From a virus (taxonomy: Duplodnaviria; Heunggongvirae; Uroviricota; Caudoviricetes; Crassvirales): a stretch of 64,000 bases of DNA. The DNA lies in the IMG/VR virus record IMGVR_UViG_3300032053_000036, positions 1 through 64,000 of that record; one strand, given 5' to 3'. Shown in pieces: positions 2,074 to 36,500 of this stretch. A program made the translations under genes and the position numbers. Each line of letters begins with the position of its first letter. The stretch's first letter is position 1. The notes beneath the pieces were generated by a model. It was not told where the DNA came from. It ran no database searches and worked only from the letters and a program-made list of their open reading frames with translations.

Positions 2074-2553
2074 TTACAAAGTGTATGCCACTACTAATGC
2101 AATGGTTTTAACAGGGTTTGTTTTCTCAACAATACTAATATAACGTGCATCAACATTAACATGATTCATTTTAACTCCTATGAATGGAGCAAATGAGAAT
2201 GATGTTGTACCATTGTCTTTCTTGTTATAAAATGATAATCCTGCTGAAGAACCAAAATAGGCACTCTCATTAACAAAATACTTTAGTCCAACCATCATTG
2301 GTACTGTAGCAAAGTTTGTCTCAGGATCAGCCTTGAAACGTACATAACCAAAGTCTACAATACCTGTAAACTTGTTATTATACTTTGTACTCACTTGAAA
2401 CCATGTAGAACCAAGATTTACATGTACTTTCTCACTGTTAGCGTCTGTAGGAAGTGCTGTTACAAGACCTACACTAAGGTTTGGCTTTTGTAATTTCTGT
2501 GCGTATGATGCAAATGATGCAAATGATGCAATAATAAGAACTAATTTCTTCAT
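2074..2553 (-). CDS. Secreted outer-membrane beta-barrel-like protein (159 aa) with a Sec signal peptide.
   Basis: N-terminus MKKLVLIIASFASFASYAQK is a Bacteroidota-style signal peptide. The remainder alternates aromatic and hydrophobic residues (FGYVRF, VGLKYFV, SFYNKK, ALVVAYTL), typical of small 8-strand OMPs. Confidence 0.5.
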   Translation of the reverse strand: MKKLVLIIASFASFASYAQKLQKPNLSVGLVTALPTDANSEKVHVNLGSTWFQVSTKYNNKFTGIVDFGYVRFKADPETNFATVPMMVGLKYFVNESAYFGSSAGLSFYNKKDNGTTSFSFAPFIGVKMNHVNVDARYISIVEKTNPVKTIALVVAYTL

Positions 2554-2577: not shown

Positions 2578-2796
2578 TTAATATTTTTCTTTGATTTCAA
2601 GCAAAATAACATTCCTATTTATAACTTGGAGTGCTTTTCCTTCTTTCTCTGTATATATGAGCTGTCTAGCTCTTTTGGCTGTTAAGCCTCTAAAACCATA
2701 ATCAAATGGTGTATCTTCAAGCCTTACAGGCTCTTCTGTAAGAAGAGAGATGTAATTAACATACACATCTCTCTCCATTGCATAGAATCTTCTCAT
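2578..2796 (-). CDS. Hypothetical protein (72 aa).
   Basis: Intact ORF. Its start overlaps the upstream stop (ATGA-type coupling). Confidence 0.4.
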   Translation of the reverse strand: MRRFYAMERDVYVNYISLLTEEPVRLEDTPFDYGFRGLTAKRARQLIYTEKEGKALQVINRNVILLEIKEKY

Positions 2797-3017
2797 TATT
2801 TTGTTCTTTTAAACCTAACAACAAATTGTTTATACTCTTCTGAAGGAGCATAAAAGTATTTATGTTTGGTGATTGTCAATCTATTAGACTTTCTGCCTGT
2901 ATGAGCAAATATTCTATCTATAAGACAAAATGAATTAGCAGTGTTGTCTAGGACTAAAATGTTGTCTCTAGAATGGTCTCTACTACACCATTCTAAACGT
3001 GTGCTTTTAATACGCAT
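2796..3017 (-). CDS. Hypothetical basic protein (73 aa).
   Basis: Intact ORF in an operon-like array. Confidence 0.4.
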   Translation of the reverse strand: MRIKSTRLEWCSRDHSRDNILVLDNTANSFCLIDRIFAHTGRKSNRLTITKHKYFYAPSEEYKQFVVRFKRTK

Positions 3018-3037: not shown

Positions 3038-3796
3038 TTACATTGTTTTGAACATTTCAAATAGTCTACCTGATTCTTGTGTAGCAAGAGCAAACCTGGT
3101 TTTATTTCTTTTTATCTTCTTGATGAATAGATCATGATCATATGAACTTATAGATCTTCTAAATTTAACATACTCACTACACAAATATCTATTCTCAAAT
3201 CTGCTCATACGATTAACAATCTTTAAAAGATCTGTTAATTGCTTAACTATTTCTACGTTTTGTTTCTCATCTATAATTCTGAATTCTCCTCTTTTTATCT
3301 TTCTTGAGGTTGATCCACCAGATCCTGCCATTCCTCCAGATAGGATATCAGCAAGGATACTGAACTCAAAATCATAAGTAGATTGATATTCGTTTAGCTT
3401 TATATAATCCTCAATCAAAGATGCCCATGCTGTAACATAATCTTGTATAGACCAATTCTTAGAACTTGCATTTAATAAAGCAAGAACCTCAATTAATTCT
3501 TTAGGATCTTTAATAGGAATAAGTACGTATGGAATATCTACGTTGTTCCTAAGGCATGCAGTGAACATGTGCTGACCATCAATTATATACTTGGTCATTC
3601 TTCCTGTAATAAAACTTAGTTCAGCAACAATTACAGGTCTCAATATATCTATTTTGCTAATAGACTCAGCAATAGGATTTACATGAGATGAAACGATTGG
3701 TCTGTTTATACCAGACAAAATACTTAACGCTTTTTTAGAACCTGCTTTCAACCATTTAATGTTTCTTAATGGTGATTTACTTAATAATGCTTTCAT
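3038..3796 (-). CDS. ParB/sulfiredoxin-fold protein with a DGQH motif (252 aa); ParB-like nuclease or DndB-like DNA-binding family.
   Basis: Segment KYIIDGQHMFTACLRNNVDIPYVLIP matches the ParBc/DGQHR-type core (Y-h-h-DGxH-x-x-A-x9-IP). There is a basic C-terminal half. Confidence 0.5.
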   Translation of the reverse strand: MKALLSKSPLRNIKWLKAGSKKALSILSGINRPIVSSHVNPIAESISKIDILRPVIVAELSFITGRMTKYIIDGQHMFTACLRNNVDIPYVLIPIKDPKELIEVLALLNASSKNWSIQDYVTAWASLIEDYIKLNEYQSTYDFEFSILADILSGGMAGSGGSTSRKIKRGEFRIIDEKQNVEIVKQLTDLLKIVNRMSRFENRYLCSEYVKFRRSISSYDHDLFIKKIKRNKTRFALATQESGRLFEMFKTM

Positions 3797-3828
3797 TGTT
3801 TTAATTTTTGATTTCTATGTTTATAAAA

Positions 3829-3866
3829 TTGTTTAAAAAGAAAATGTGCCCAGTTTCCCAGGCACA
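3829..3866 (-). terminator. Rho-independent terminator.
   Basis: Minus-strand hairpin TGTGCC-(10 nt)-GGCACA followed by TTTTCTTTTT. Confidence 0.45.
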
Positions 3867-3892
3867 TAATTCTCATCCATCCCCATAATATT

Positions 3893-4046: not shown

Positions 4047-4592
4047 TTAATCTTGGTCATAAAGATTGTTTTTTGGATTAGTAAATTGATTTTCCCATTC
4101 ATCATTAGAACTTGGTGGTAAGTATTCTTCATCATCATCAAAGAAATATTCAACATCATCATCATCATTCTCTTCCTCTAGAGGATGACTTAGGATTGCT
4201 TTGTCTTGTATGAATAGAGGAATAGGAAATCCTCTAACATCATATTCATCATCTTCCACCTCTATATCAACACGACAATCATTGTCTAAGATTTGATTTA
4301 TCTCTTTAGATGTAATATCATATAGCTCATCAGACTGTTCTCCTACATCCCACCATCCTATTTGATGTGGATAGGCAATTATATAATCCTCATCAAGATT
4401 TTTATTACCTTCTAGTATTATATATGGATCTACAGGATAACCATTGAGTTGTAGATATGCATCTACATCAATTGGCATAACAGTCAATTGGAATATAACC
4501 ATGTCTTTATTCTGTCTAACAAGGAACAACATACCTCTTTCAAGTCTTAGAGGCTTGTATGATTTAAATATTAGCTTACCTGTGATGTGCAT
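4047..4592 (-). CDS. Highly acidic protein (181 aa); candidate DNA-mimic / anti-restriction-like protein.
   Basis: D/E-rich along its whole length, for example LEEENDDDDVEYFFDDDEEYL and DIEVEDDEYDV, with aromatic residues interspersed as in Ocr/ArdA-type mimics. Confidence 0.45.
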   Translation of the reverse strand: MHITGKLIFKSYKPLRLERGMLFLVRQNKDMVIFQLTVMPIDVDAYLQLNGYPVDPYIILEGNKNLDEDYIIAYPHQIGWWDVGEQSDELYDITSKEINQILDNDCRVDIEVEDDEYDVRGFPIPLFIQDKAILSHPLEEENDDDDVEYFFDDDEEYLPPSSNDEWENQFTNPKNNLYDQD

Positions 4593-4992: not shown

Positions 4993-5021
4993 TGAAAAAA
5001 GCCCAGTGTAGAAACACCAGG
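4993..5021 (-). terminator. Rho-independent terminator after the small membrane-protein gene.
   Basis: Minus-strand hairpin CCTGGTGT-TTCT-ACACTGGG (8 bp, 2 G.U) followed by CTTTTTTCATTT. Confidence 0.5.
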
Positions 5022-5051
5022 CGATTATTTATATCCATACCTATTAAAACT

Positions 5052-8456: not shown

Positions 8457-8825
8457 TTGTATAAACTAAATATGGAACCAACAAAAGGAATATTACAGAA
8501 GCTCAGAAGGAAGGAAGACAATGATCTCCTAATAGCAGAGAAATATTACACCATCCTTTCAGCTGTTAACAATCTCCATTTGACAAATAGAGAGATACAG
8601 CTTATAGCGTTTACAGCTGTTAAGGGGAACATTTCTTATTCTAATATTAGGCAGGAGTTTTGTGACATTTACAAGACAACAAGTCCAACGATTAATAATA
8701 TAATCAGTAAGCTTAAGAAGATTAAAGTGCTAGTGAAGGATGGGACAAAAGTGAAGGTGAATAATATGATTGTTCTGGATTTTGCAAAGGACATAACATT
8801 AGAAATTAAGCTGACGCATGGATAA
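8457..8825 (+). CDS. Hypothetical protein (122 aa), possibly DNA-binding.
   Basis: Intact ORF. Basic, with a helix-rich composition. Confidence 0.4.
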   Translation: MYKLNMEPTKGILQKLRRKEDNDLLIAEKYYTILSAVNNLHLTNREIQLIAFTAVKGNISYSNIRQEFCDIYKTTSPTINNIISKLKKIKVLVKDGTKVKVNNMIVLDFAKDITLEIKLTHG

Positions 8826-9231
8826 GCCCATTTCACTATCTATGAAGGAATATCTTGTCAGGACACAAGCTGTCAAGATGATGATTTCTGAAAAAACAAT
8901 TGAGGCTGTAATAAACCACCAGTTTAATACAGCAAATGAGGCGTTGAAGACAAATAATAGTGTAGAAATCTCAGGATTTGGAAAGTTTACGTTCAACTAC
9001 AAGAAGGCCCTGAAGAAGATGGAGAAGATGTTGTCTCAACAGCAGCTCTTTCAAAGTAGGATAGATAATCCTGCATTGTCAGAACAGAGAAGAGCAACAG
9101 AAACAGTGAAACTAAATAATGTCATTCATAATATAAACATTTTAAAACCAAAGCTTTATGAATTTCAAACAAATCCTGGAGGGCTGGAGGAACAACACCC
9201 TGCCACCAACGCATCTGAAGGAACTGATTAG
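8818..9231 (+). CDS. HU/IHF-like histone-like DNA-binding protein (137 aa).
   Basis: MKEYLVRTQAVKMMISEKTIEAVINHQFNTANEALKTNNSVEISGFGKFTFNYKK aligns position by position with the HU N-terminal helices and the GFGxF beta-strand (E. coli HU: ...[20 protein letters not shown]). The arm region is degenerate. Confidence 0.45.
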   Translation: MDKPISLSMKEYLVRTQAVKMMISEKTIEAVINHQFNTANEALKTNNSVEISGFGKFTFNYKKALKKMEKMLSQQQLFQSRIDNPALSEQRRATETVKLNNVIHNINILKPKLYEFQTNPGGLEEQHPATNASEGTD

Positions 9232-9460
9232 TGAAACAGCTAAGAAAAGAATAAATATATGTTTAGACTGTGCATACCATTCTAAATATCATAAGACATT
9301 ACGACCTGATGCACATTGTACAAACTGTGGATGTACATTAGCAGCCAAAACTAAATGTCTTTCCTGTGAATGTCCAATAGATAAATGGACAGCTGTACTA
9401 ACAGATGATCAAGAGGAACAACTTAAAAACATGATCAATGGAGAACAACAATCAAATTAG
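9158..9460 (+). CDS. Cys-rich zinc-binding protein. The start is probably downstream of the annotated one because of the overlap with the HU-like gene.
   Basis: CLDC...HCTNCGC...CLSCEC gives three CxxC-type pairs. Confidence 0.3.
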   Translation: MNFKQILEGWRNNTLPPTHLKELISETAKKRINICLDCAYHSKYHKTLRPDAHCTNCGCTLAAKTKCLSCECPIDKWTAVLTDDQEEQLKNMINGEQQSN

Positions 9461-9734
9461 GCTGCACAAGATTCCTCTAGAAACATTCCTGGATGCTCTA
9501 TTAGAATTGTACAATGAAGGACTTGATTATATAGATATTGTAGCCACTCCTGACAAGGAACAGGATACAATAGGAATTATGTTCACACAGGATTATATGT
9601 CCAAAGAAATGAGAGACAAGTATGGTGATATTGTAGATGAAATAGCTGATGAGCTAATTAATAATATTGAAAAAGAAGAGAAGTCTAAAAAGATTGACCT
9701 CTCAAATAATGACGATTTAAACCAAATAATATGA
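9438..9734 (+). CDS. Acidic hypothetical protein (98 aa).
   Basis: Intact ORF. Confidence 0.4.
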   Translation: MENNNQIRLHKIPLETFLDALLELYNEGLDYIDIVATPDKEQDTIGIMFTQDYMSKEMRDKYGDIVDEIADELINNIEKEEKSKKIDLSNNDDLNQII

Positions 9735-9910
9735 ACCCAATACACGAAGCATGGATTGTAATTGAGAAGCTAGGAGCATTATGTGCAACACCAGGCATCT
9801 CAGAAGAAACGCAAAAGATTGCAAATGATAACATTCAAAAGCTGTTGAAGAGTGTTGTTGAACCAAGTTTAACAAAGTTGACAGCTACAAGTGCAGGAAT
9901 ATTAATATGA
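9731..9910 (+). CDS. Small ORF (59 aa), missed by the 60-aa cutoff.
   Basis: Manual translation gives MNPIHEAWIVIEKLGALCATPGISEETQKIANDNIQKLLKSVVEPSLTKLTATSAGILI. Its stop overlaps the next start (ATGA). Confidence 0.4.
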   Translation: MNPIHEAWIVIEKLGALCATPGISEETQKIANDNIQKLLKSVVEPSLTKLTATSAGILI

Positions 9911-10188
9911 GACGAGCAAGTGCATATAATCAAATCCTAGGAGTTCTTCATGAGCTACAGAAAGAATATCCTCAGTATAACATAGGGAGACATTTGGCCA
10001 CAGCACTAGATGTGTATGGAGATGTGTGGGGAGTTCCTGATACAGAAATCCTATTTGCTTTGTTTAAATACAGATCACAATTAGGAATGGACTTCAAACA
10101 CTCTGAAGTGTATGATATTGAAAGGATTATAGAAGATGGGATAGATCTTGATAACATATTAAAAGAAGAAGATAATGGCAACAGTTAA
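9907..10188 (+). CDS. Hypothetical protein (93 aa).
   Basis: Intact ORF. Confidence 0.4.
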   Translation: MRRASAYNQILGVLHELQKEYPQYNIGRHLATALDVYGDVWGVPDTEILFALFKYRSQLGMDFKHSEVYDIERIIEDGIDLDNILKEEDNGNS

Positions 10189-10552
10189 AAAACAAATGAT
10201 TAAACGTAAGGATGGTTCTACATCTCAACGTGGATTGTGGGATAACATAAGAGCTAATGCAGGCTCTGGTAAAAAGCCTACACCTGAAATGCTTAAGCAG
10301 GAAAAGAAAATAAAGCAAGCTAAAACAGGAGCATGGCAGAGAAAGGAAGGAAAGAGTCCTTCTGGTGGTCTCAATGCTAAGGGTAGAGCATCATTAAAAG
10401 CTGAGGGGCATAATATCAAACCTCCTCAGCCAGAAGGTGGTCCTAGGAAAAAGTCATTCTGTGCTAGGATGGGTGGAGTAAAAGGACCTATGAAAAAACC
10501 TGATGGATCACCAACAAGAAAAGCTTTAGCTTTAAGAAAATGGAAATGTTAA
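10175..10552 (+). CDS. Very basic Lys/Arg/Gly/Pro-rich protein (125 aa); nucleic-acid-binding or internal virion protein.
   Basis: Composition KRKDGSTSQRG...GKKPT...KKIKQAK...RKKSF. Confidence 0.45.
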   Translation: MATVKKQMIKRKDGSTSQRGLWDNIRANAGSGKKPTPEMLKQEKKIKQAKTGAWQRKEGKSPSGGLNAKGRASLKAEGHNIKPPQPEGGPRKKSFCARMGGVKGPMKKPDGSPTRKALALRKWKC

Positions 10553-10553
10553 T

Positions 10554-10886
10554 ATGGCAGCAGTAAAAAAAACTACATACATCAACACAGAGCTCGAATG
10601 GGCTGAGACACAACTCAAATCATGGAAGCAATATGTTGATGCCAATCCACTTCACGAACTGAAGGATAGGATTGAATGGAAACCTACATCTAAAGGAGGA
10701 CTACTTCCTATGGTGATAGCCTCTATAGAAGCTCAAGGTAAGTTTGTCCAAGAGACAATGAAGAACTATCTTGCACTGGTAGAAGTGGTGGACAAGCTGA
10801 GAAGCTTAGAAGAAGCAAAAGTTGAGGTGAGAGGGAAGGGAGATCTTTCAGGAATAGCTGAAGACTTCCTTAAAAACAGAAGATAA
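10554..10886 (+). CDS. Hypothetical protein directly upstream of TerL (110 aa). A small terminase subunit is possible but not supported by any motif.
   Basis: Position only. It shares the N-terminal MA(A/T)VKK with the preceding gene. Confidence 0.3.
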   Translation: MAAVKKTTYINTELEWAETQLKSWKQYVDANPLHELKDRIEWKPTSKGGLLPMVIASIEAQGKFVQETMKNYLALVEVVDKLRSLEEAKVEVRGKGDLSGIAEDFLKNRR

Positions 10887-12907
10887 TGAAACTACAAAGC
10901 ATAGATTACAAAGATTGGTTTATGAACCAGAAAAGACTTCCTGATAAGGGGTCTTCTGAATATAAATCATTCTTTGATTTTCATAAGGAGCTTTGTTTAA
11001 ATGGAGCTATGATGGGGGATGTTTACATCAACCCATTTTTGTATTGGCACTTAAACATCTGGCATACAGAGGTGGATATAATAGATGACTATGGAAGAAT
11101 AAACCAGAAATATGCCAATCCTCTTCTTAGGGACAATGAGTGGTTGGTGAGTAATGAGATAGATAGAGCTCAAAAAGACAAGAAAGGTTTAGTCATACTT
11201 GGTATACGAAGGTTTGCTAAGTCTGTTTTGGAAGCAAGTTATATAGGCTGGGGAGCAACATTTGATGAGAACTCTCAGAACATTATTGCAGGACTGAATG
11301 CTCCAGATATAAAGTTGATTACAGATAAGCTTGACAAAGGCTTAAACTTTCTTCCTGAGTATTGGAGATGGCAGAGAATTGAGGACAACTGGAAGAATCA
11401 GGTGACATTAGGTATAAAGACAAAGGCAGGAGAAAGAATACCATTCTCACAAATCCTCATCAGGAACTTAGATGAAGGTAATAATGAAGAAGCTATTGCA
11501 GGTACAAAACCTCGTAAGCTAATTATAGATGAGATTGGTAAAGGAAGTTTCTTAAGAGGTTTCCAAGCAGCTGTGCCTGGTTTCACTACACCATTTGGTT
11601 GGGGTTGTTCTCCAATCTTGACAGGAACAGGTGGTGATATGAAACGATTCATGGATGCCAAGAGTCTTATGTTTGACGTGGACAACTTTAACTTCCTTAC
11701 ATATAACAATGAAAAGGATGAGAGAAGAATCCATGGCTTATTCATTTCTCATAAGTATAGAATGGAGGCAAAGGAAGATTCTACATTAGGAGCTTTCTTA
11801 AATCAGCCTATAGGTTCAGACTTGTACAACGTAAAAATGCTTGTGTCTAATGAGGAGAAAGCTAAGCTGATAACAGATACAAACCTTGATAGATTAAAAA
11901 AGGCTGGAGACAGGATTGCATATTTGAAAGAGAAGATGTACTATCCTCAGGAAGTGGATGATATATTCCTGAATGAAGACACAAACATCTTTGATATTGA
12001 GGCTGCCAAGAGACAGAAGACAAGACTATTGAATCAGGAGAGAACAGGAATACCTGTAGTGTTATTTAATGATGGAGAGAAGATTTGCCATGAGTTTACA
12101 GATAAGCAACCCATATCAAACTTCCCCCTTAAGAATAGCGATCTGAAGGATGCTCCAGTTGTTATATATGAATTCCCTGTAGAAAATCCTCCATATGGAT
12201 TGTATGTAGCAGGAGTCGATCCCTACAGACAAGGAAAGTCTGAATACAGTTCTTCTTTAGGAGCTGTATACATATATAAGAGAATGCATGAGCTGACAGG
12301 CGAGAAGTATCAAGATATGTTTGTAGCCAGTTACTGTGCAAGACCTGATAAGAAGGAAGTGTGGGAAGAACAAGCACGTCTACTCATAAAGTATTTTAAT
12401 GCTAGAACACTTTGTGAGAATGATGATATCTCCTTCATAGAATATATGAAAAGCAAGGGAGATGCTCACTACCTAGAAAAACAACCTGGATGGTTATTGG
12501 AAGTGGTTCCAAATACTACTGTCAAACGTGAGTATGGCGTGCATCGTTCTTCAGATAAGATTAGAGACTATCTGCATAACTGTCTTAAGAAGTATCTAGA
12601 GGAAGTGGTATATAAAGAAACAAATGAGGATGGGGATACAATACGAGAGCTAACAGGTGTCACTAAAATATTTGATCCTGTTTTGCTTGAGGAGATTATA
12701 CAGTATAATGATGTAAGTAACTTTGATAGAATCATTGCAGCAGAACTAGCTATTGCACAGGCACTCAAGATGGACCCTATAATGGGAAAGGTGGGAGGTT
12801 CAGGTGATGAAAGAGTGAAGGCTATGTTCTCATCACAAAAGAAAAACACATTGTTCTCTGAATCAAGAGGACTATTTAATAGTAAAAAACGTAAACTGTT
12901 TACATAA
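10886..12907 (+). CDS. terL: Terminase large subunit (673 aa).
   Basis: Walker-A-like GIRRFAKS, Walker-B-like KLIIDEIGK, and a C-terminal RNaseH-fold nuclease signature YVAGVDPYRQGKSEYSSSLGAVYIY. It lies immediately upstream of the portal gene. Confidence 0.75.
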   Translation: MKLQSIDYKDWFMNQKRLPDKGSSEYKSFFDFHKELCLNGAMMGDVYINPFLYWHLNIWHTEVDIIDDYGRINQKYANPLLRDNEWLVSNEIDRAQKDKKGLVILGIRRFAKSVLEASYIGWGATFDENSQNIIAGLNAPDIKLITDKLDKGLNFLPEYWRWQRIEDNWKNQVTLGIKTKAGERIPFSQILIRNLDEGNNEEAIAGTKPRKLIIDEIGKGSFLRGFQAAVPGFTTPFGWGCSPILTGTGGDMKRFMDAKSLMFDVDNFNFLTYNNEKDERRIHGLFISHKYRMEAKEDSTLGAFLNQPIGSDLYNVKMLVSNEEKAKLITDTNLDRLKKAGDRIAYLKEKMYYPQEVDDIFLNEDTNIFDIEAAKRQKTRLLNQERTGIPVVLFNDGEKICHEFTDKQPISNFPLKNSDLKDAPVVIYEFPVENPPYGLYVAGVDPYRQGKSEYSSSLGAVYIYKRMHELTGEKYQDMFVASYCARPDKKEVWEEQARLLIKYFNARTLCENDDISFIEYMKSKGDAHYLEKQPGWLLEVVPNTTVKREYGVHRSSDKIRDYLHNCLKKYLEEVVYKETNEDGDTIRELTGVTKIFDPVLLEEIIQYNDVSNFDRIIAAELAIAQALKMDPIMGKVGGSGDERVKAMFSSQKKNTLFSESRGLFNSKKRKLFT

Positions 12908-15501
12908 TGGCAATTATAAGGTATACAAAAGATGCTACTATACGCTATGCGTATCTAAACATATTTCCTGATCAGTTCAAAACTGATAAAGAGAAACAAG
13001 ATGAAAGCTGGGTGAAGAATACAATGGACTACTTTGCAAATAAGGCTTATGCTGAGTATGTAAAGAATAGAGATACATTTGTTAAGAACTATGACTTGGT
13101 AAAGGGTATTCTAAGAATGGAAGACTTCTATCAGGAACCACAAGTGAAGAGCTTCACTGATATGCTCACTACAGATCTTCAGCTTCCTGCGTATGTGAAG
13201 CACTATTCAATCATCACCACACCAATCAATGAACTTGTAGGAGAGATATCAAAACGTCCTGATGCATTTAGAGTGAAGGCTTTTGATGAAGATAGTCAGG
13301 CTGAAGAGCTACAATTCAAGACAGAATTATTGCAACAGTTTGTAATAGGAACTGCAAAACAGAAACTATTAGAAAAAGCTGCAATGAGTGGTCAGGAATT
13401 AGGAGAAGAAGAAATGGAACAAATTGAACAGATGTCAATGGATCAGGTGAAAGATCAACTTGATACATACACATCTGTAGCTGAGAAATGGGCCAACCAC
13501 ATCTTAACTTGTCAAAAGGCAGAATTTAATTTAAAAGAAAAAAGTGAAGATGCTTTCAGAGATATGCTTATTTCTGCAAGAGAATTCTATCATATATATG
13601 AAGACAATAGCAAACTTGGGTTTAACATTGAGGTGGCGAATCCTAAGAACACATGGTTCCTTACCACTCCTGATAGAAAATATATCTCTGATCCCACAGG
13701 AAGAGCTCAGGGGGCTTACGCAGCTGGTACAGTTCAAGTCATGGAGCTTTCTGAAATTATTGAGTCAATTCCTGACCTAACAAAAGATGAGATTGACCAC
13801 TTACGTTCATCTCTCCAGGATTATGGTTTGATCAATGTTAGAGAATCAAACCTTGGTAATCCTAATGCAATCCCTGGTCAAGACTCAGTACAATATGATA
13901 CATTTGATCCATTAGTCCTTCAGACAAGAATGATTATTGAATCTGAAATGAAGAACAATGATGATGGGTTACAAGATTTCTTAGGACTTACATCTAATGT
14001 ATCTTCATTTGGATATAAGTATGTAGTGGTTAGAGCTTATTGGATTTCTAAGAAGAAGATTGGTAAGCTAATCTATATAGATGAAATGGACAATGAGCAA
14101 TCTATGCTTGTTGATGAAACATACAAGAGTGGAGCTATACCTACACAACAATCTTTAGATTGGGGATGGGTAAATCAATGGTATCAAGGAATTAAGATTG
14201 GTCCAGACATCTATCACATTAAGCCATACAAACTACTCAACTATTGTCCAATCATAGGACTTACGCATGAGATTAAGAATACAGAAGCAAGATCTTTGGT
14301 AGACTTAATGAAACCTTTCCAGGTGTTATATAATGTTTGTATGAATCAGCTTTACAAACTTCTTGAGAAAGAGGTTGGTAAGGTTTATCTTACATCTATC
14401 AGACACATTCCTATTCCTAAGGATGGTGATGCTCAAGATGCTCTTGACATATGGGAAATGGAAGCACGTAACAGAGGGGTGATGTTTATAGATGATTCTC
14501 CAGAGAATCTAAAATCTCCATCTAGCTTCAATCAGTTTAGAGATATTGATCTTACACGTACGCAGGAGATACAGTCTAGATATAATCTAGCAATGCAGTT
14601 GAAGAATGAGTGTTGGGAACTTATAGGTATGTCAAGACAAAGAATGGGATCTATATCAGCAAGTGAATCTGCAACAGGTACAAATACAGCTATACAACAA
14701 TCTTATTCTCAGACAGAACCTATATTTGTAGCACATGAGTATGTAATGGGTCAGTTGTATCAAGCAATTATAGATGCTGCTTTATATGTAGAAGCTAAAA
14801 AGCCACAGTCAACCCTTTCATACATTACATCTGAAGGAGAATCTGCCTTTGTTCAAGTGAATGGCGCAGATCTCAGATTTAGAGATCTTAAAGTGTTCTT
14901 AACTAACAGACCAGAAGACAAACAAATGTTCCAAGAGATCAGAGCACTTTCTCAGGCTGTTCTACAAAATGGTGGTTCGTTACATGATGTGATTGAGTTG
15001 TATTCTACAAACTCTATGAGAGAAATGAAGAAGGTGTTTAAGACTCTTAAAGAAAGACAAGAGTCTATGCAAGATCAGCAGATGCAACAGCAACAACAAC
15101 AAATGGAACAACAGCAACAACAAGCTCAGGCTCAGTTGCAACAAACAGCTCAAATGGCTCAAGAGAAACAAGCTAATGATGATTATCAAAAAGAACTCGA
15201 TAGATTGTCTAAAGAGAAAATTGCTATCATTCAAGCTACAGGATATGGTAATGTTCCAGGAGAAGATGTTGATAAGAATGCAATTCCTGATGTTCTAGAG
15301 ATGAGCAAACTCACTCATGACCAAGAGAAAGCTGCTAAAGATTACCAAGTAAAACTTGCTGAGATTAATTCTAAAAACAAACAAGCTTCAGATAAGATGG
15401 CTATTGAGAGAGAGAAGCTTCAAGTGGCTAGAGAGAATCAAGCTAATGACTTAGCTGTAGCTAAAGAGAATGCTAAAGGTAGAGCTAAAAAATCTAAATA
15501 A
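12907..15501 (+). CDS. Portal protein (864 aa) with a C-terminal poly-Gln coiled coil.
   Basis: Size and position between TerL and the scaffold/MCP genes. C-terminal QDQQMQQQQQQMEQQQQQAQAQLQQ plus a basic tail. Confidence 0.55.
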   Translation: MAIIRYTKDATIRYAYLNIFPDQFKTDKEKQDESWVKNTMDYFANKAYAEYVKNRDTFVKNYDLVKGILRMEDFYQEPQVKSFTDMLTTDLQLPAYVKHYSIITTPINELVGEISKRPDAFRVKAFDEDSQAEELQFKTELLQQFVIGTAKQKLLEKAAMSGQELGEEEMEQIEQMSMDQVKDQLDTYTSVAEKWANHILTCQKAEFNLKEKSEDAFRDMLISAREFYHIYEDNSKLGFNIEVANPKNTWFLTTPDRKYISDPTGRAQGAYAAGTVQVMELSEIIESIPDLTKDEIDHLRSSLQDYGLINVRESNLGNPNAIPGQDSVQYDTFDPLVLQTRMIIESEMKNNDDGLQDFLGLTSNVSSFGYKYVVVRAYWISKKKIGKLIYIDEMDNEQSMLVDETYKSGAIPTQQSLDWGWVNQWYQGIKIGPDIYHIKPYKLLNYCPIIGLTHEIKNTEARSLVDLMKPFQVLYNVCMNQLYKLLEKEVGKVYLTSIRHIPIPKDGDAQDALDIWEMEARNRGVMFIDDSPENLKSPSSFNQFRDIDLTRTQEIQSRYNLAMQLKNECWELIGMSRQRMGSISASESATGTNTAIQQSYSQTEPIFVAHEYVMGQLYQAIIDAALYVEAKKPQSTLSYITSEGESAFVQVNGADLRFRDLKVFLTNRPEDKQMFQEIRALSQAVLQNGGSLHDVIELYSTNSMREMKKVFKTLKERQESMQDQQMQQQQQQMEQQQQQAQAQLQQTAQMAQEKQANDDYQKELDRLSKEKIAIIQATGYGNVPGEDVDKNAIPDVLEMSKLTHDQEKAAKDYQVKLAEINSKNKQASDKMAIEREKLQVARENQANDLAVAKENAKGRAKKSK

Positions 15502-22958: not shown

Positions 22959-24095
22959 ATGAGTTGTTCAAATTGCTTCAATGGTTGCGCTGAGATTGTC
23001 TCAGACCAATGCGTTAGATATACAGGAATAGATATTCCTGTTCTAGGAATTAAGAATGGAGATTCTCTATCATTCGTAGAGCAAGCTCTTATAACATTCC
23101 TCACCTCAACATTAGATGGATCAGGAATTAAACCTGACATCAGTTCCACTATTATATGTAACCTTGTTAAAGACTATCTTCCTACGTGTGGAGATCTTAC
23201 AGTGGTAGATTTCTTAACAGCCCTTATAAAAGCCACATGTGATCTCCAGGAACAAGTAGATCTTATAGTTGCAGACATAGTAGTAATCAATAATCAATTA
23301 GATGTAATTGAAGGTGATTATGATGTAAACTGTCTCACAGGTGTAACTGCAGGTAGTGGCACACATGCTGTTCTCCAGGCTACACTAGATGCATTATGTG
23401 CATTTATTGTAGATGTAGAAACAAACTATGTATTGCTTGCTGATTTTAATACATTAGTTGCTGATTATTTAGCAGGTCTTCCTTCAAGTACATTAGTAAG
23501 TCAAAAGATGGTTCCATATGTTGCTTATGAATATTATGGTTCATTAACTCAATTTGATGCTACAGGTAAGGGAATAGGAGATTGGGATAAAATCTATTTA
23601 TGTAATGGATTAAATGGCACTCCTGATAGAAGAGGTGTTGTTGCTGTAGGTGCTATATCAAGTGTTCCTGGTGGACCTCTTCCATCAGCAACAAATCCTG
23701 CATCTTCTCCTTTCAATCCAAACTATGCGTTTGCAGGCCCAATTGTAGGAAGTAATAGTGTTACATTAAATGCTAATCAAATACCAAGTCATGTTCATGA
23801 TAATACATTAGTATTTACTAATCCTGATCATACACATTTTACTTTTACTGCAAATAGTCTTGTAAGTGGTGCAGCTATTATTACTTCTACAACCTCTCCA
23901 GCATATCAGTTAACAGGTGCTGCAGATTTTAGTTATAATATGGTTGGAAACAATGTAACTCCTACAATTGGTTTAACTAGTCCTAGTAAATCAGCTCTTA
24001 CAATAACTCTTACAAACGTTGTTGCTGGTGGAAATCAAGCACATGCTAACAATCAACCAGCAATTGCTGCATATTATATAATGTATCGTCCATAA
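22959..24095 (+). CDS. Tail fibre protein with HxH motifs (378 aa).
   Basis: PSHVHDNTLVFTNPDHTHFTF has two His-x-His motifs, as in metal-binding fibre needle domains. The N-terminus is Cys-rich (CSNCFNGC). Confidence 0.5.
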   Translation: MSCSNCFNGCAEIVSDQCVRYTGIDIPVLGIKNGDSLSFVEQALITFLTSTLDGSGIKPDISSTIICNLVKDYLPTCGDLTVVDFLTALIKATCDLQEQVDLIVADIVVINNQLDVIEGDYDVNCLTGVTAGSGTHAVLQATLDALCAFIVDVETNYVLLADFNTLVADYLAGLPSSTLVSQKMVPYVAYEYYGSLTQFDATGKGIGDWDKIYLCNGLNGTPDRRGVVAVGAISSVPGGPLPSATNPASSPFNPNYAFAGPIVGSNSVTLNANQIPSHVHDNTLVFTNPDHTHFTFTANSLVSGAAIITSTTSPAYQLTGAADFSYNMVGNNVTPTIGLTSPSKSALTITLTNVVAGGNQAHANNQPAIAAYYIMYRP

Positions 24096-29550: not shown

Positions 29551-30516
29551 ATGAGCTACTACTATAAATATAATTTCACAACGCCTGAGATAGTTTATTC
29601 CACAGTAAAAGAGGAATTAAAAAGCTATTTTGATACAGGAGCAATTGATGATCTTTTGTTCCCAACCTATCTTGACAAGTGTCTCAGGAAGTTAGGAAGA
29701 ACAACGTATGTCATAGCTGAAACTGCTCTGTTTATAGAAGACTTTCAATGTAGGCTTCCAGATAACTTTTATGCTGTAAGAGAAGCATGGATGTGTTCTG
29801 AAATTCCAGGCAATCCATATCAAGGTGCAAGTTCATTCTATTCCCAAGCTCTTACACAGACAACTATACAAGTGAGTCCTGTAATATCAAACCAAGTGGC
29901 TTGTAATAGTAATTGTCCTCCTAATAATTGTACATGTATGCCAGAACTTATTCAGGCTGTGTATAAAACAAATCAACAGATCCCAAGGTCTTACAAAAAA
30001 CAATATCTCCTGAAACCAGGAAATATTTCTGTTAGACAACATTGTAATGTAGATTATACAAATAATTGGAGCTTTGCACAACAAGGTGTTCCTGTTAATG
30101 AGTTTACACCAGGATCAGCATCTCTTGACTCATTTGATATTAGAGATAATAAGTTTGTTACAAATTTTAGAAATGGTATAGTTCATTTAGTTTTCTATGC
30201 TACAGAGTATGATAATGGTGGGAATCAAATGATTCCAGATAACTATCGTATCAGAGAATATATTGAAGCTTTCATTAAGTTTAAAATGTTTGAAACACTA
30301 ACAAACCAAACAAATGATGAAACCTTTCAACAGCTACAACAAAAGCTTGTATATCACAAGCAATTGTCTGAAGAAGCATTCATCATGGCAGATATTGAAA
30401 TTAAGAAACAAGACGCATATGCTAAACAGAGAAGGATCAAGAATGATCTAAACAGATTTAACATGTACGAATTACCAAATAGAACAAACAGATATGGCTG
30501 GAGAAGAAACAACTAA
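29551..30516 (+). CDS. Tail-associated protein (321 aa).
   Basis: Intact ORF. Its end overlaps the giant ORF by 23 nt. Confidence 0.4.
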   Translation: MSYYYKYNFTTPEIVYSTVKEELKSYFDTGAIDDLLFPTYLDKCLRKLGRTTYVIAETALFIEDFQCRLPDNFYAVREAWMCSEIPGNPYQGASSFYSQALTQTTIQVSPVISNQVACNSNCPPNNCTCMPELIQAVYKTNQQIPRSYKKQYLLKPGNISVRQHCNVDYTNNWSFAQQGVPVNEFTPGSASLDSFDIRDNKFVTNFRNGIVHLVFYATEYDNGGNQMIPDNYRIREYIEAFIKFKMFETLTNQTNDETFQQLQQKLVYHKQLSEEAFIMADIEIKKQDAYAKQRRIKNDLNRFNMYELPNRTNRYGWRRNN

Positions 30517-33500
30517 TCAGGGAAATAACATAAACCCAGAGTATAACGTAGGTAGACTTGGCCTTAATATGGATCAATCTGTTAATCAGATTCCAAAGGG
30601 CACGTTATCTTATGCACTGAACGCTGCTGTTGAGAACTTTGATGCTAATTCTGTCAACTATCAGAATGAGCCAGGTAATGAGTTTTGTCTAAACTTTCCT
30701 ACAGGGTATCATCTTATAGGAGAGCATTTTATAAATGAAAAGAGTAAGCATGTATTCTTCTTAGCAAATCCTGATTCAGAAGAATCTGAGATTGGTTATA
30801 TGGATAATACTGATTGTGTCTATCGCACATTTGTAAATGCTAAGTGTTTAAACTTTAATATAAAAAATCCAATACATAAAGTTGTTCATAAAATATCAAA
30901 CTGTACTACAGAGATATATTGGACAGATGGATTAAATCCTAGAAGATATGTTGATCTTGAGGACATAACAAAAATATATACAGTTACTCCTGGTACAGAT
31001 GTTTGTGATAATCAGCGACTACCTATAATTGATTGTAATAAATTTAAAATACAACCCAACTTTGAAATCCCTGAACTTAGTATTGTAGATGTTAGAAATG
31101 GTGGAGACCTAACAGCAGGAACCTATCAGTTTGCAATACAATATTGTGATTCCTTAGGAACAGGATATACATCATATTATTCTGTAACAAACCCTACACC
31201 AATATTTGATCCTAATAAAGTAACACTTGATTTTAATTATCAAGTGGGTAAGTCTATTGTGGTGAACATCAATAACATAGACATAACAGGATATTTTCAA
31301 TTTTTTAATGTTGCTGTAATTAAAACAGTGAATAATATAAGTTCTGTAGAACTAGTTGGAACATATTTTATAGACAGAGTTACAAAAGAAATCATCTACA
31401 CAGGTCAGAATGTAACACAGATAAGGCTTACAATAGATGATATATTTGAAAAGTTTCCTTACTATGATGTAGCTCAAGATATTACAGCTGTACAGGATAT
31501 TCTTGTATGGGATAATCTTACATCTGCTGAAAGAATAAATTATCAACAAATAGCAAATAGAATAACTCTTCAATGGCAGAGTTATAGAATTCCAAATACA
31601 GAAACATACGCTGATGAATTAAACGCAACTAATCTTCGTGGGTACATGCGTGATGAGGTTTATGCATTTGAAATAGTCTTTCTCCTAAGGAATGGTAAAC
31701 AAACAGATGGCTTTCATATTCCTAGTAGAGCAGTAAATCCTCAAGATGTTGTTCTTGTTGATGAGACAAATCAAGACTTTATAGGAGAACCTGAAACAAC
31801 AGTTGGTAACTTAGGCTATAGTCCTTATTGGAAAATATATAACACAGCATACAAAGTTGCAGATGCTCCAGGTAAAACAGGACTATCTTCTTACAAAGGA
31901 GACTGGGAATATGGTGAGTTTGCATATTGGGAATCAACAGAAACCTATCCTTGCAATGAGGAAGTTTGGGGTGATCTTTCAAACCAACCAATCAGACATC
32001 ACAAGTTTCCTGATGTTCTCGTAAGTCCTATATTTGAAAGTCCTACAATAGCAATTGATGGTAATGGAAAGTATGCTCCTGTAACACAAAAAGATGCCAT
32101 CTATCCACTTGGTGTAAAACTTGACGTTGCTCAAGTGCTTACATTAATACAGCAATCAAATCTAACAGCTGATCAAAAGGCAGAAGTTGTAGCATTTAAA
32201 ATAGTGAGAGGTGATCGTGGCACAAACAAGTCTGTAATTGCAAAAGGTATATTGAGGAATGTAGGAAAGTATAGTAGAGAAGGAACAGACTATTACTATC
32301 CAAACTATCCATACAATGATCTTAGACCAGATCCATTTATCAATGATGCAAGTAATGCGTACACCACTGCATTCATCTCAGGACTAAATGCAAGCATTAC
32401 GTGTAGAAGTTTTACAATCACAGCTAAGACAGACTCTGTAATTGAATATCAAAGTTGTGCAACAACATTAACAGATACAATAGAAGTTAAAGCTGGTGAG
32501 GTAAAAGAAGTGTGTTCTTTTGATTTTCCAAAACCAAAAATTATATCAGGACAAGCTTTTATAACATGCAATACATATAAAAGATATAGTATCTATGCAC
32601 GGGGAGGAGAGTTTAATATTACATGGCCTCATATTCCTGGAGTTAACAACTGGCCTTATTTTAGACCAATAGGAACGAATCAAGCAGATCCTGATAATTA
32701 TCCTTATGGGGCACCACCATTAGGATACTCTTCTTGGGAGTTATATTGTATTGATAATCCAGGTAACACTGCTTGTGCATCTTGTTTAAATCCAAATGCT
32801 ACATGGAATCCTGGATGGCCTACAGAGTTTTGGTATTCTCATTATTGTGGAAGATATGATGCTAGAGATTGTGGGTATACTTGGTATGTAGATTCTATTG
32901 TTCCTCCTGTATGGAATGGTGTAGGCTATACTAGTTTTATAATAAAAGAAGTAGCATCCTTTAATAAAGGTAATTGTACACCAAACCCTTTAGATGGGTT
33001 TAAATTTCCTGAGGCTGCATATAGACTTGTATTTAATTCTCCTGAAACATCATTTGGACAACCATTCCTTGGAAATATTCTAAGACTTGAGAATGTAATG
33101 TATGGAGCTGGTCATGCTCATTTTGTACAAGTAAAAGGTAATGCAAACTATAAACTTCTTACAGCTGAGGCTCAAGGAGATGCTCTTGATTCATCACTTA
33201 ATCTTGCAAATATTACAGGAACATTTGATCCTGCAGCTATGTTTGTTGCCTACCAAGCATATCTAACAATATATGTAAATGGTATCACAAGAAGAAACTA
33301 TGCATATTCATTCAACTCTATTGCTGGGTATGATTATTCTTCAATTATAGCAAATGGTCTTGGTGTAAAACAAAGAGAGATAGATCTTACACAATATCTT
33401 ATTCCTGTTGTACAAAATGTTGGAGATGATCATAGTATAAATAACTGGTATAGAGAATCCTCTGTATACATTAAAACTAATAGTAACACAGATACATATG

Positions 33501-36500
33501 ATGTTCCATATATAGTTTATGAGATTTGTAACAATTCAATATTCCCTCTTAATAATTTAAGAGTTCAAATAACAGATCCAGCTACAGGAGTGACAATAGT
33601 TACTATTCCTGGTGCAAGCACTTGTATAAATTATAACTCAACAACCTACCCTGTTCGTATTTCTGGTCCTTCAACCTATACAATTACAGCATTAGGTAAT
33701 GGTGTACAGCCTGTAGCTTTAACAAGATCAGCTCTACCTTTTCCAAGTAATACACCAAGTCTTTCTCCTGGAGGAGTTAGTCTTATAGAGGATGATACAA
33801 GATTTATTCTTTCTGATGCCACAAGAGGTGGTGATTGTAATAAGCCTCAGAAGGAACTAGATACAAAAGTGGTTGCATACTATGCATCTATGAAGAATGA
33901 TTTTGTTAATCAGTGGGGACAGATGTATTCATATGATACTATCGACACAGGATTTCAAAGAAATATTGATCTTCAAAAAGCATTAAATCCATATGCTCAA
34001 GGAACTGTAACAGTGTTTGGTGGAGATACATTTATTAATAAGTTTGCATTCAAAACAAAGCTTCCATTCTTTATAGATAACAGAGTGAATGCTCCTGATG
34101 ATTCAGATATATTCTACGATGAGATTGGTAATGTTGCCTATCCTACATACTGGCACTCTGCAAGATCTGTACTAGGAAATTACTTTGCTGGAAATGTAGT
34201 TGGTACTAGTGATGTAGACATGACAAATATGATCTCTATAAAAGCTCATAATTTTGATTGTCCTAATAGCCAAACTCCTAAAGCAAACAATCCTGGAAGA
34301 ACTTATTATGATGGTAAGTTTTATCTATTTGCTTATGGTGTTCCATCATTCTATTGTGAGAGTGTAGTGAACGTAGATCTTCGTCAAGCATTTAATAATA
34401 GAGAAGGAGAATTCTGGCCTCATGTAAGCACAAGTATTCCTGATGATTGGTTCCAAGAGAATTTTGTAACTATTGCTCAGGATAATACATACTATTATAA
34501 TGTTACATTCTCTAAACAGAATAGAGAAAACTATTTCTCACATCTACCTGTAGATTGGGAAAAGAAACTTTGTTACACTTATTATCCATTCAGAGCTATA
34601 TATTCTGATATGCAAATAGACATTGTAACAAATCAAACAAACAACTGGTTGATTTATCGTCCAGTGTCTTATTTTGATTTTCCTCAGAACTATGGTAAGC
34701 TTACATCATTAGATGGTGTTCAGAATAAAGAGATTCTTGCAAGGTTTGAGAACAAGACACTTCTATACAATCAGTTGATAACAATTGATACAAGTAATCC
34801 AAAAGCTGCATACATAGGAAACAGTAAATTATTTGAAGGAGCTCCTCCTGTAGATTTTGCAGATACAGACCTTGGCTACATAGGATGTCAGAACAAGATG
34901 TTATTAAAGATTCCACAAGGACAAGTTACAGTTGATGCTAAAAGAGGACAAATATTTCTTTTAACAGGACAAGGTGCAAAAGATCTTTCTGCATTTGGTT
35001 CAGGATTGAATAGATTCTTTACAGACCACTTAGCCTTTGAAATCCTTAGATATTTCCCTGAGGTGGATACAGATAATCATTTTGATGGTATTGGATTACA
35101 TGGTGTATACGATTCTAAGTATGATAGAATCATAATAACAAAACTTGACTACATTCCAGTTGCAGGAAAGAATGTAATGTTTGATGCTATAAACAATAAG
35201 TTTTATGTAGAGAGAATCTTAGGAAATGCAACAATTATAGATGAGGTTTTTGTAACAGATTATGAATACTTCTGTAATAAATCATGGAGTCTTTCATTCA
35301 ACTTCAATACAAACAGTTGGATCAGTTTCCATAGCTATATTCCAAACTGGTATGTAGCTGAGAACAACTTCTTCTATTCAGGACTTAATGGAGGTTGTGA
35401 CATTGCTGCTATTGCGTATGAGGAAGTCATATACACCACATCAAGTACAACTACTCCTTGTATAGGATGTAAACCTCCAGAGTCTACAACATCAACAACA
35501 ACAGTTTATGTAGATTGTGATCTCGAAGGAACAGCTATATTAGAACCAGAACCAACAACCACTACCACTAGTTCTAGCAGTACAAGCACATCTACTAGCA
35601 CAAGTACGACAACTATAACTACAACACTTTGTCCTTCATGTAGTACATACACAGTAACAAACTCAACAGCATTTTCACAACCAGTTACAATAACATCATG
35701 TTATACAAATGAAGAGTTTGTAGTTTATGTAAGTGCAAATAGTTTCATAAATATATGTTCTTGTATACCACCAGAAGTTACAATTGGTGTAACACAATCA
35801 CTTCTTGCAGAAGAGTGTGTTGGTTGCTTCTGTTATACAGTAACAAATGATACAGGAAAAGATTCAGACTTTAGTTACACCACGTGTAATGGTGTAGATT
35901 TAACTCTATCAATATTGAATGGACAATCACTACAAGTTTGTGCTCAACAGTTTTCAGTGACATCATTCTTCCCAGTCTTAATAGAAGGAGGAATGCTTCC
36001 TTGTAGTGTGGATGGAGATTGTACACCAATACCTACAACTACAACTACCAGTAGTTCTACAAGTACAACTACTACCACTACAACAGTGGGTCCTATAAGT
36101 GTACCTCTTTGTGCAGTTCTTTATAATGATACTGATGGACTAATCTACTACTATAATCTCATAACAGATACTTCAACGTTATTGCCTGTACCAGCAACTA
36201 GTTCAATGTACAATCTTGACATTGCTCACACTCAGAATAAATTATGGACACTTTCAACTAATAAACTTTTAGAATGGGACATAACACTAACTCCATTCAC
36301 TGCAGTGTATAATAGAAATATAACTTTACCACACATAGTTGGAGTAGGATTAGGTGCAATAAATGATACAACATTAATTTCTGTAAATCCTCTAACTACA
36401 CCTCAGAGTGTTGTTACATTAGATATATCAATAACTCCTGCAACATCAACTTATAAGTTTGATATGATTGCTAATAGAACAGTTGCTGGAGATATTCTAC

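Follow-up and report, generated by a model that had tools for sequence, protein, structure and literature searches.

An orphan ParB/Srx-fold protein from the replication arm of a crAss-related podophage lineage lacks the canonical phosphate-binding arginine

The ParB-CTPase fold is a versatile nucleotide switch that mobile elements have reused far beyond chromosome segregation (PMC12704722). It can take ATP or GTP besides CTP, and the arginine of its Box II GxxR motif is needed for nucleotide binding in every nucleotide-binding ParB-fold protein; 17 of 28 purified ParB-fold proteins bound no nucleotide in vitro, and a match to TIGR00180 serves as the criterion for canonical ParB domain organization (PMC12704722). 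[quoted passage not shown] DNase activity has been reported in this superfamily for P. furiosus 1VK1, for Osa and for plant Srx (PMC4619093). The DGQHR protein DndB is a repressor that binds ATP/GTP (PMC4507180; PMC12704722). In phages, a ParB protein activates its T-dioxygenase partner on dsDNA even when the residues of its NTP site are mutated (PMC13229309). Orphan phage ParB-fold proteins are a recognized and recently surveyed class, and the protein described here belongs to it with a noteworthy variant, a Box II without arginine.

The window, by which we mean the whole 64,000-nucleotide stretch of viral DNA that was analyzed, is AT-rich (GC 31–38%) and carries no tRNAs. Its plus strand encodes a terminase (phrog_6681, E = 4e-83) and a portal protein (phrog_6547, E = 1e-96), after which come giant ORFs of 2,839 and 4,402 aa. 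The terminase is nearest to that of Leptolyngbya phage Lbo-JY46 (40% identity) and to those of Cellulophaga phages phi4:1 and phi17:2 (33%), with crAss-like phages next at 27–30%; from these relationships, the source is a distantly crAss-related, uncultivated podophage. The right end of the window holds no usable complete ORF. Divergent from the structural arm runs a minus-strand arm of small ORFs, and it is in this arm that the gene of interest lies.

This gene is an ATG-to-stop ORF of 252 aa at positions 3038–3796 of the minus strand (stop codon at 3038–3040). The first-pass annotation had matched the peptide YIIDGQHMFTACLRNNVDIPYVLIP, which corresponds to residues 70–94, to the core of the DGQHR domain. 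Four of the five residues bear this out, as D73, G74, Q75 and H76 are encoded by gat ggt cag cac (positions 3580–3569, minus strand); the fifth does not, as the next codon specifies Met77 at the position of the GxxR arginine, a residue missing from nearly the whole phage clade. Translated in all six frames, the window contains the DGQH tetrapeptide once, against 0.04 occurrences expected from shuffled sequences, so the tetrapeptide by itself is weak evidence. The ParB/Srx observation is solid because of motif conservation and fold. In an alignment of 38 sequences (A1), D73–H76 are invariant, together with N31, R32, R83, N109, S111, S112 and W115. In a second alignment of 63 diverse homologs with identities down to ~22% (A2), R32, N109, W115 and G170 are invariant, and N31, S45, R53 and D73–H76 are at least 90% conserved.

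An AlphaFold2 model built from A1 (pLDDT 85, pTM 0.73) consists of an α/β N-terminal domain, approximately residues 14–110 (positions 3467–3757, minus strand), followed by nine helices in residues 117–252. The N-terminal domain carries a Box I-like N31–R32, a Box II at D73–H76(–M77) and a Box III-like N109…K113. In its compact α/β core the phosphate-binding motif lies where strand 3 meets helix 2, the arrangement by which the ParB/Srx superfamily is recognized, and DGQH sits at such a strand-to-helix junction (strand 68–73, helix 75–83). The best matches of Foldseek searches of the PDB were ParB–CDP (6sdk, E = 3e-4), Noc, KorB, PadC and sulfiredoxins, at a probability of 1.0. In BFVD, full-length matches (TM 0.56–0.59) were to uncultured-phage proteins bearing only the names 'ParB/Sulfiredoxin' or 'ParB-like nuclease domain'. 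Because the searches returned ParB/Srx hits and no different fold was predicted, the fold assignment of the first-pass annotation stands, borne out by predicted structure and profile evidence alike. The 252-aa protein is a genuine, strongly constrained member of the ParB/Srx fold.

Searches of Pfam, NCBIfam and PADLOC with the 252-aa protein alone gave nothing significant, with no PADLOC match at E ≤ 10; a Pfam HEAT_5MP1_2 match was rejected as noise (18.8 bits against a cut-off of 26.5). Among PHROGs, which come without a curated cut-off, the protein matched phrog_12305 ('ParB-like partition protein') at E = 8.9e-18, with residues 71–237 aligned to profile positions 54–214 of 271; this significant HMM match reaches both domains and makes the protein a member of that family. 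Pfam ParB_N (PF02195, gathering cut-off 26.3 bits) gave no match at E ≤ 10 for the protein itself and was weakly matched by 23 of the 38 relatives (best E = 7.7e-6), a relative at 22.9 bits still falling under the cut-off. ParBc_2 (PF08857) was matched by four of the 38 (best E = 0.0038; 17.6 bits for a relative against a cut-off of 23.6). The 252-aa protein likewise had no match to TIGR00180 (relatives at 12–18 bits against 58), to the DndB/DGQHR models TIGR03187, TIGR03233 and PF14072 (relatives at 12–17 bits against cut-offs of 58.9 and 29.1) or to DUF262/GmrSD_N (PF03235; relatives at 14–20 bits against 33.2). Members with a literal DGQHR gave the best E values, all below threshold, for SerK (1e-4), GmrSD_N (1e-3), TIGR00180 (1e-3), TIGR03187 (4e-3) and DndB (6e-3). 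The ParB, DndB and DUF262 profiles that the first-pass annotation had named thus respond weakly to the DGQHR-bearing relatives, and no DGQHR, DndB, DUF262 or ParB model is reached at threshold. Because these relatives weakly match GmrSD_N, DndB, TIGR03187 and SerK, DGQHR/DndB and DUF262 are among the nearest branches. In both, D-G-Q-H occupies the same structural place as in the 252-aa protein, preceded by [Q/N]R and followed by a hydrophobic residue-xxx-N.

Comparisons with proteins of known structure place the motif on equivalent segments of several branches. A PDB search with the A1 profile recovered no ParB; the A2 profile gave marginal matches to SbnI (0.011), plant Srx (0.025), H. pylori ParB (0.28) and Noc. 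Profile alignments set DGQH against DGVHR in SbnI, SGCHR in sulfiredoxin and AGERR in ParB. Alignment by hhalign to a B. subtilis ParB sequence that is identical to 6sdk over residues 21–218 covered residues 37–112 (E = 1e-4) and paired GILRPVIV with GILQPLIV, YIIDGQHMF with YDIVAGERRF and ALLNASS(K) with ALLENLQ(R). These pairings put Boxes I, II and III in register with ParB, and the protein shares its N-domain fold and box order with canonical ParB/Spo0J, Noc and KorB. The family is roughly equidistant from the named ParB/Srx branches and belongs to none of them; it is a distinct, phrog_12305-like phage family that falls between the ParB_N and DGQHR/DUF262 branches.

The SbnI, sulfiredoxin and SerK matches raise the question of a phosphotransferase that would phosphorylate a small molecule or a side chain of a protein with ATP or ADP. 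Such a function is very improbable. The matches span only ~60–100 residues of the shared core, and SerK scores 21 bits against a cut-off of 380. Unlike these enzymes, the 252-aa protein has neither the catalytic cysteine nor the phosphate-binding arginine after the histidine, and its C-terminal domain is unrelated to those of SerK and SbnI.

The missing arginine is a property of the clade. G74-Q75-H76-M77 aligns to the G-E-R-R of ParB, so that both arginines are replaced, by His76 and Met77. An arginine or lysine after DGQH is absent from 113 of the 119 close homologs that have the motif (present in six) and from 99 of 118 representatives (present in 19), and the phage clade mostly reads DGQHL. 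DGQHR itself occurs in only ~16% of representatives, among them every long bacterial fusion and a few of the short stand-alone proteins. The canonical phosphate-binding arginine has been lost in this clade. The invariant R83 is not a relocated GxxR arginine, because it corresponds to a Lys that Srx and SbnI have as well. The elements that flank the pentapeptide in DGQHR domains have equivalents in similar register with different residues, N31–R32 standing for QR and L105-x-x-x-N109 (consensus I-x-x-x-N) for FxxxN, and R32 and N109 are invariant. Because the remaining pocket residues are so strongly conserved, the alignments argue that the ParB-fold pocket is retained and would still be functional. 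Judged by its sequence, the protein is probably not a canonical CTP-dependent clamp; compared with such clamps, it lacks the GERR arginines, and neither a helix–turn–helix (HTH) nor a C-terminal dimerization domain was detected in it.

The second half of the protein is a basic, all-helical domain (residues 117–252, pI 9.3; positions 3041–3448, minus strand) with an invariant K168-x-G170-x-F172, and it is conserved over its full length in the cultured-phage homologs described below. Both halves are basic (pI 9.9 and 9.3). The C-terminal domain alone matched nothing in the PDB, aligned to the ParB HTH region at 0.1% probability and, in sequence searches, detected no relative outside the family; sequence analysis of the 252-aa protein revealed no HTH or demonstrable DNA-binding motif. 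Foldseek alignments outside the N-terminal domain are loose (TM 0.32–0.40), the overlaps with Noc and ParB being at TM 0.39–0.40. Charge and this loose overlap suggest that the C-terminal domain may bind DNA.

These features invite comparison with transcriptional regulators or silencers such as DndB, KorB, VirB or Noc, in which case the protein would bind specific sites on phage or host DNA, and ATP or GTP rather than CTP would modulate that binding and thereby time phage gene expression. KorB, Noc and ParB are the closest structural matches that align past the core, the protein is basic, DndB offers a repressor precedent within the DGQHR proteins, and the gene heads its own terminator-bounded unit. 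Against this role, which we regard as distinctly unlikely, stand the missing HTH, the absence of any recurring palindrome or operator-like repeat in the 64-kb window and the loss of the GxxR arginine, on which NTP binding depends in every member tested.

The transcription unit is delimited by two intrinsic-terminator-like hairpins on the minus strand, one with a T-run just upstream of the ParB-like gene (positions 3844–3867) and one that closes the unit (2001–2024). The unit comprises four genes, the ParB-like gene followed by genes of 73, 72 and 159 aa; five terminator-like sites were found against 1.1 expected. Followed on identical or near-identical contigs, the arm runs on into genes for DNA polymerase (652 aa, phrog_1252, E = 4e-142), a DnaB-like helicase and an SF2 helicase. 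In four diverged genomes, the ParB-like gene lies a few kilobases or less upstream of these three. Synteny with the replication genes is proximity only, within a long co-directional arm.

We compared the locus with three diverged relatives (L005, L006 and L007). Only three small-arm genes have homologs there: the ParB-like gene, its upstream neighbor of 181 aa (positions 4047–4592, minus strand) and its downstream neighbor of 73 aa (2796–3017, minus strand). The order of the trio is kept in two of the three relatives, and in L005 it abuts the DNA polymerase gene. The ParB-like protein is 54–60% identical to its counterparts, compared with 62–76% for DNA polymerase, 84% for terminase, 40% for the SF2 helicase, 31–39% for the 181-aa neighbor and 31–40% for the 73-aa neighbor. 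By these identities, the gene behaves as core-like rather than accessory-like. The label of accessory region that the first-pass annotation had applied is therefore wrong for this gene, which shows core-level conservation and synteny with the replication module amid small ORFs that are nearly all unconserved.

The 181-aa neighbor is modeled with a β-rich domain (residues 1–138, pLDDT ~90) and a disordered, acidic tail that ends in a conserved DDEEYxPPxNDEWENxF. It could be assigned to no family and has just 22 homologs; its sequence matched nothing in the PDB and showed no similarity to the single-stranded DNA-binding protein (SSB) of phage lillamy9-1. Because the layout of a β-rich domain and acidic tail resembles that of phage SSBs, the neighbor is a candidate SSB-like protein; the model offers a lead only that it might be such a protein or a partner of the ParB-like gene product. 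The 73-aa neighbor has no Pfam or PHROG match.

A search of 5.8 billion proteins yielded 269 homologs of the 252-aa protein, all unnamed and metagenomic, on contigs that reach ~119 kb, and a profile search of 1.84 billion representatives yielded 3,676 relatives at E ≤ 1e-3. In GenBank phages, neither DNA nor protein searches matched anything at 1e-5; the hits there were faint (E ≥ 5e-3), and two of them were later validated by profile comparison. With hhalign, Enterococcus phage EfV12-phi1 gp084 (YP_009814791) aligned over 197 columns and both domains (99.3%, E = 3e-20) and Flavobacterium phage lillamy9-1 gp41 (YP_009854896) over 199 columns and both domains (98%, E = 1e-13); both bear the label that PHROGs gives phrog_12305 and may belong to that family. 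They share with the 252-aa protein the signature NR...DGQH...LNxSSKxWxxxDY...IKxGxF and a similar length (266–276 aa). They differ in their low identity to it (~20–25%) and in keeping the arginine, as DGQHR, where the window clade has DGQH[L/M]. Both genes sit among those for replication or nucleotide metabolism: EfV12-phi1 gp084 adjoins ribonucleotide reductase and thymidylate kinase genes, and lillamy gp41 is directly followed by the SSB gene and then by a primase/helicase gene. We found no paper that pairs 'ParB-like' with Herelleviridae, and the two proteins accordingly appear to be unstudied.

PHROGs and GenBank label such relatives 'ParB-like partition protein', and the fold is indeed that of ParB. 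A genuine partition ParB would ensure that the phage persists as an episome during a carrier or pseudolysogenic state. EfV12-phi1 belongs to Herelleviridae, a strictly lytic group. With the recurring placement beside genes of replication and nucleotide metabolism, this renders the partition label implausible. Neither the window arm nor the flanks of the relatives yielded a ParA-type gene, the ParA-binding motif (L/F/I)G[KR]G(L/F/I) occurs in none of 237 family members, and the 64-kb window contains no recurring palindromes, operator repeats or parS-like clusters. GERR has become GQHM, TIGR00180 is not matched, and a scan of 185,579 species genomes with the closer alignment located the family on only four short MAG contigs, which are probably mis-binned phage. 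On this evidence, we consider a partition function extremely improbable.

The module also has bacterial relatives. All long bacterial forms (348–642 aa) carry a literal DGQHR, with the module fused behind an N-terminal region of 180–420 aa that has no Pfam, PHROG or PDB match. A Rosetta-stone link was rejected, as the fused extension has no counterpart among the ORFs of the window or the loci. The one bacterial relative readable in context (P0242) lies among pnp, rpsO, polA and tsaE. These bacterial relatives are chromosomal and not replisome-linked, and they have little bearing on a replication role.

They do bear on the proposal that the protein is a ParB-like nuclease, active early in infection, that would nick or degrade the DNA of the host or the phage. 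DNases have been reported in the superfamily, 1vk1 and Osa are among the structural hits, four of the 38 members weakly match ParBc_2, and the conserved D73 and H76 could bind metal. The ParBc_2 hits are few and below threshold, however; neither an HNH or DUF1524 effector domain nor a nuclease neighbor of these types was found, and outside the generic pocket the family conserves no motif of nuclease type. This pocket is also conserved in the chromosomal relatives amid housekeeping genes, where a non-specific DNase would be hazardous. We judge a nuclease role improbable on balance.

An anti-defense or DNA-modification accessory role would make the protein a decoy for DUF262 enzymes (GmrSD, BrxU, SspE), a DndB-like interferer with phosphorothioate systems or an activator of a DNA-modifying enzyme. 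The DGQHR-bearing relatives with their weak matches to GmrSD_N (E = 1e-3) and DndB (E = 6e-3) are consistent with the first two, as are BFVD neighbors named 'GmrSD N-terminal domain' and 'sulfur modification protein'. Activation finds precedent in the published phage ParB activators of T-dioxygenases, which are 5mYOX-associated (PMC13229309), and an N6/N4 methyltransferase is encoded three genes upstream of lillamy gp41. Precomputed Pfam labels for 8–10 kb flanks in four genomes include no ParA, TET/JBP, methyltransferase, dnd or dpd genes, and no ssp genes are among the neighbors of the ParB-like gene. We think a role of this kind unlikely, and the nuclease, host-DNA-targeting and anti-phosphorothioate or anti-modification-defense roles that the first-pass annotation had suggested are speculative.

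Like the 252-aa protein, the 5mYOX-associated ParB176 is an orphan phage ParB fold with no obvious DNA-binding domain. Its function tolerates NTP-site mutation, which shows that such a protein can have an accessory role on DNA other than as a CTPase (PMC13229309). The 5mYOX-associated ParBs differ in having NTP-binding residues, a ParB-type C-terminal dimerization domain and a TET/JBP dioxygenase neighbor, none of which was seen here.

Taken together, the 252-aa protein is a lineage-conserved gene product of the crAss-related podophage replication arm. We tentatively favor, at somewhat less than even confidence, an accessory or regulatory factor that acts on phage DNA or on a partner from the replisome or nucleotide metabolism. 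By analogy with orphan phage ParBs whose role on dsDNA is to activate a partner enzyme, the basic C-terminal domain would supply nucleic-acid or partner binding, and the ParB-fold pocket would act as a module for self-association or activation that is ligand-gated or, in this clade, possibly ligand-independent. We infer that the protein binds DNA or a partner and that it is linked to replication; the ligand status of its pocket is likewise inferred. In a bolder version, which we hold to be unlikely though worth stating, a nucleotide-independent or differently liganded ParB-fold module would serve lytic phages as a dedicated replisome, origin or DNA-organizing factor. This version draws on the loss of the arginine from a pocket whose other residues all stay invariant in the clade, and on the core-like retention of the gene beside polymerase and helicase genes, along with its β-rich, acidic-tailed neighbor.

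The present result is a sound fold assignment and demonstrates no new mechanism. Its interest lies in the family, which is abundant and spans uncultivated crAss-related phages, a cultivable Enterococcus phage of the Herelleviridae and Flavobacterium phages. Almost no orphan phage ParB has a known job, and this family is routinely mislabeled as a partition protein, an annotation that a function would correct. The natural variants with and without the key arginine amount to a ready experiment on the need for nucleotide binding. If the bolder version is true, these arginine-containing and arginine-less variants would make the switch mechanism directly testable, and such a module would represent a hitherto undescribed functional class of the ParB fold.

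The 252-residue ParB-like protein encoded at window positions 3038-3796 on the minus strand has a homolog, P0002, that carries a 23-residue N-terminal extension, MCLGNWAHFLFKQFYKLEINFKT. Because this extension matches a translation of the upstream terminator hairpin (within window 3797-3867, minus strand), it is likely the product of a miscalled start; the true start of the ParB-like gene is probably the ATG at 3796.

The small-gene arm also contains two intrinsic-terminator-like hairpins on the minus strand (2001-2024 and 5001-5022) that share an identical inner stem-loop, TGTTTCTACA. This 10-mer occurs four times in the window, versus 0.34 copies expected. The remaining two copies, at 23414 and 57001, lie within long plus-strand open reading frames (22959-24095 and 49478-62686, respectively) and probably arose by chance, and the hairpin pair may represent a reused terminator or regulatory module.

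Within the terminator-bounded unit, the ParB-like gene is accompanied by a 159-residue ORF (2074-2553, minus strand) that returned no match in a family search. Its N terminus resembles a signal peptide (MKKLVLIIASFASFASYAQ), and it has an alternating β-strand-like pattern ending in VVAYTL; judged from these sequence features, its product looks like a small outer-membrane β-barrel-like protein. In diverged relatives, the ParB-like gene keeps its synteny with the gene for a 181-residue protein (4047-4592, minus strand). Residues 1-138 of this protein form a β-rich globular domain, followed by a disordered tail that is strongly acidic and terminates in a conserved DDEEYxPPxNDEWENxF motif. This layout of globular domain and acidic tail resembles that of phage SSBs. 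Searches of Pfam, PHROG and the PDB gave no match for this protein, which has only 22 known homologs.

The divergent plus-strand arm is headed by a gene for an HU/IHF-type DNA-binding protein (8818-9231; phrog_379, E = 3e-6; precomputed PF00216 on identical contigs), which adjoins the divergent intergenic region. Downstream of the structural genes, two giant plus-strand ORFs encode 2,839 and 4,402 residues (30494-39013 and 49478-62686). Such ORFs are typical of crAss-related phages, where their products are RNA polymerase or multidomain proteins packaged into virions.

Past the left end of the window, a contig of the same phage (L001) encodes a 652-residue DNA polymerase (9120-11078) that matches phrog_1252 with E = 4e-142 and no Pfam family at E ≤ 0.01; the polymerase of this lineage appears too divergent for Pfam models. 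In the diverged relative L006, the DNA polymerase is surrounded by a guanylate-kinase-like gene, an HNH/NUMOD4 homing endonuclease and a 366-residue thymidylate synthase homolog (10658-15301), a set that could indicate that this sub-lineage modifies nucleotides or bases. None of the three genes is present in the readable stretch of the window's own phage.

Relatives of the ParB-like module also occur in bacteria (loci L009 and L010, 8001-9929), as 642-residue proteins with a literal DGQHR motif in which the module is fused C-terminally to an unfamiliar N-terminal region of ~420 residues. These genes are chromosomal and neighbor pnp, rpsO, dsbB, polA and tsaE; they constitute a cellular branch of the ParB-like family in a housekeeping context.
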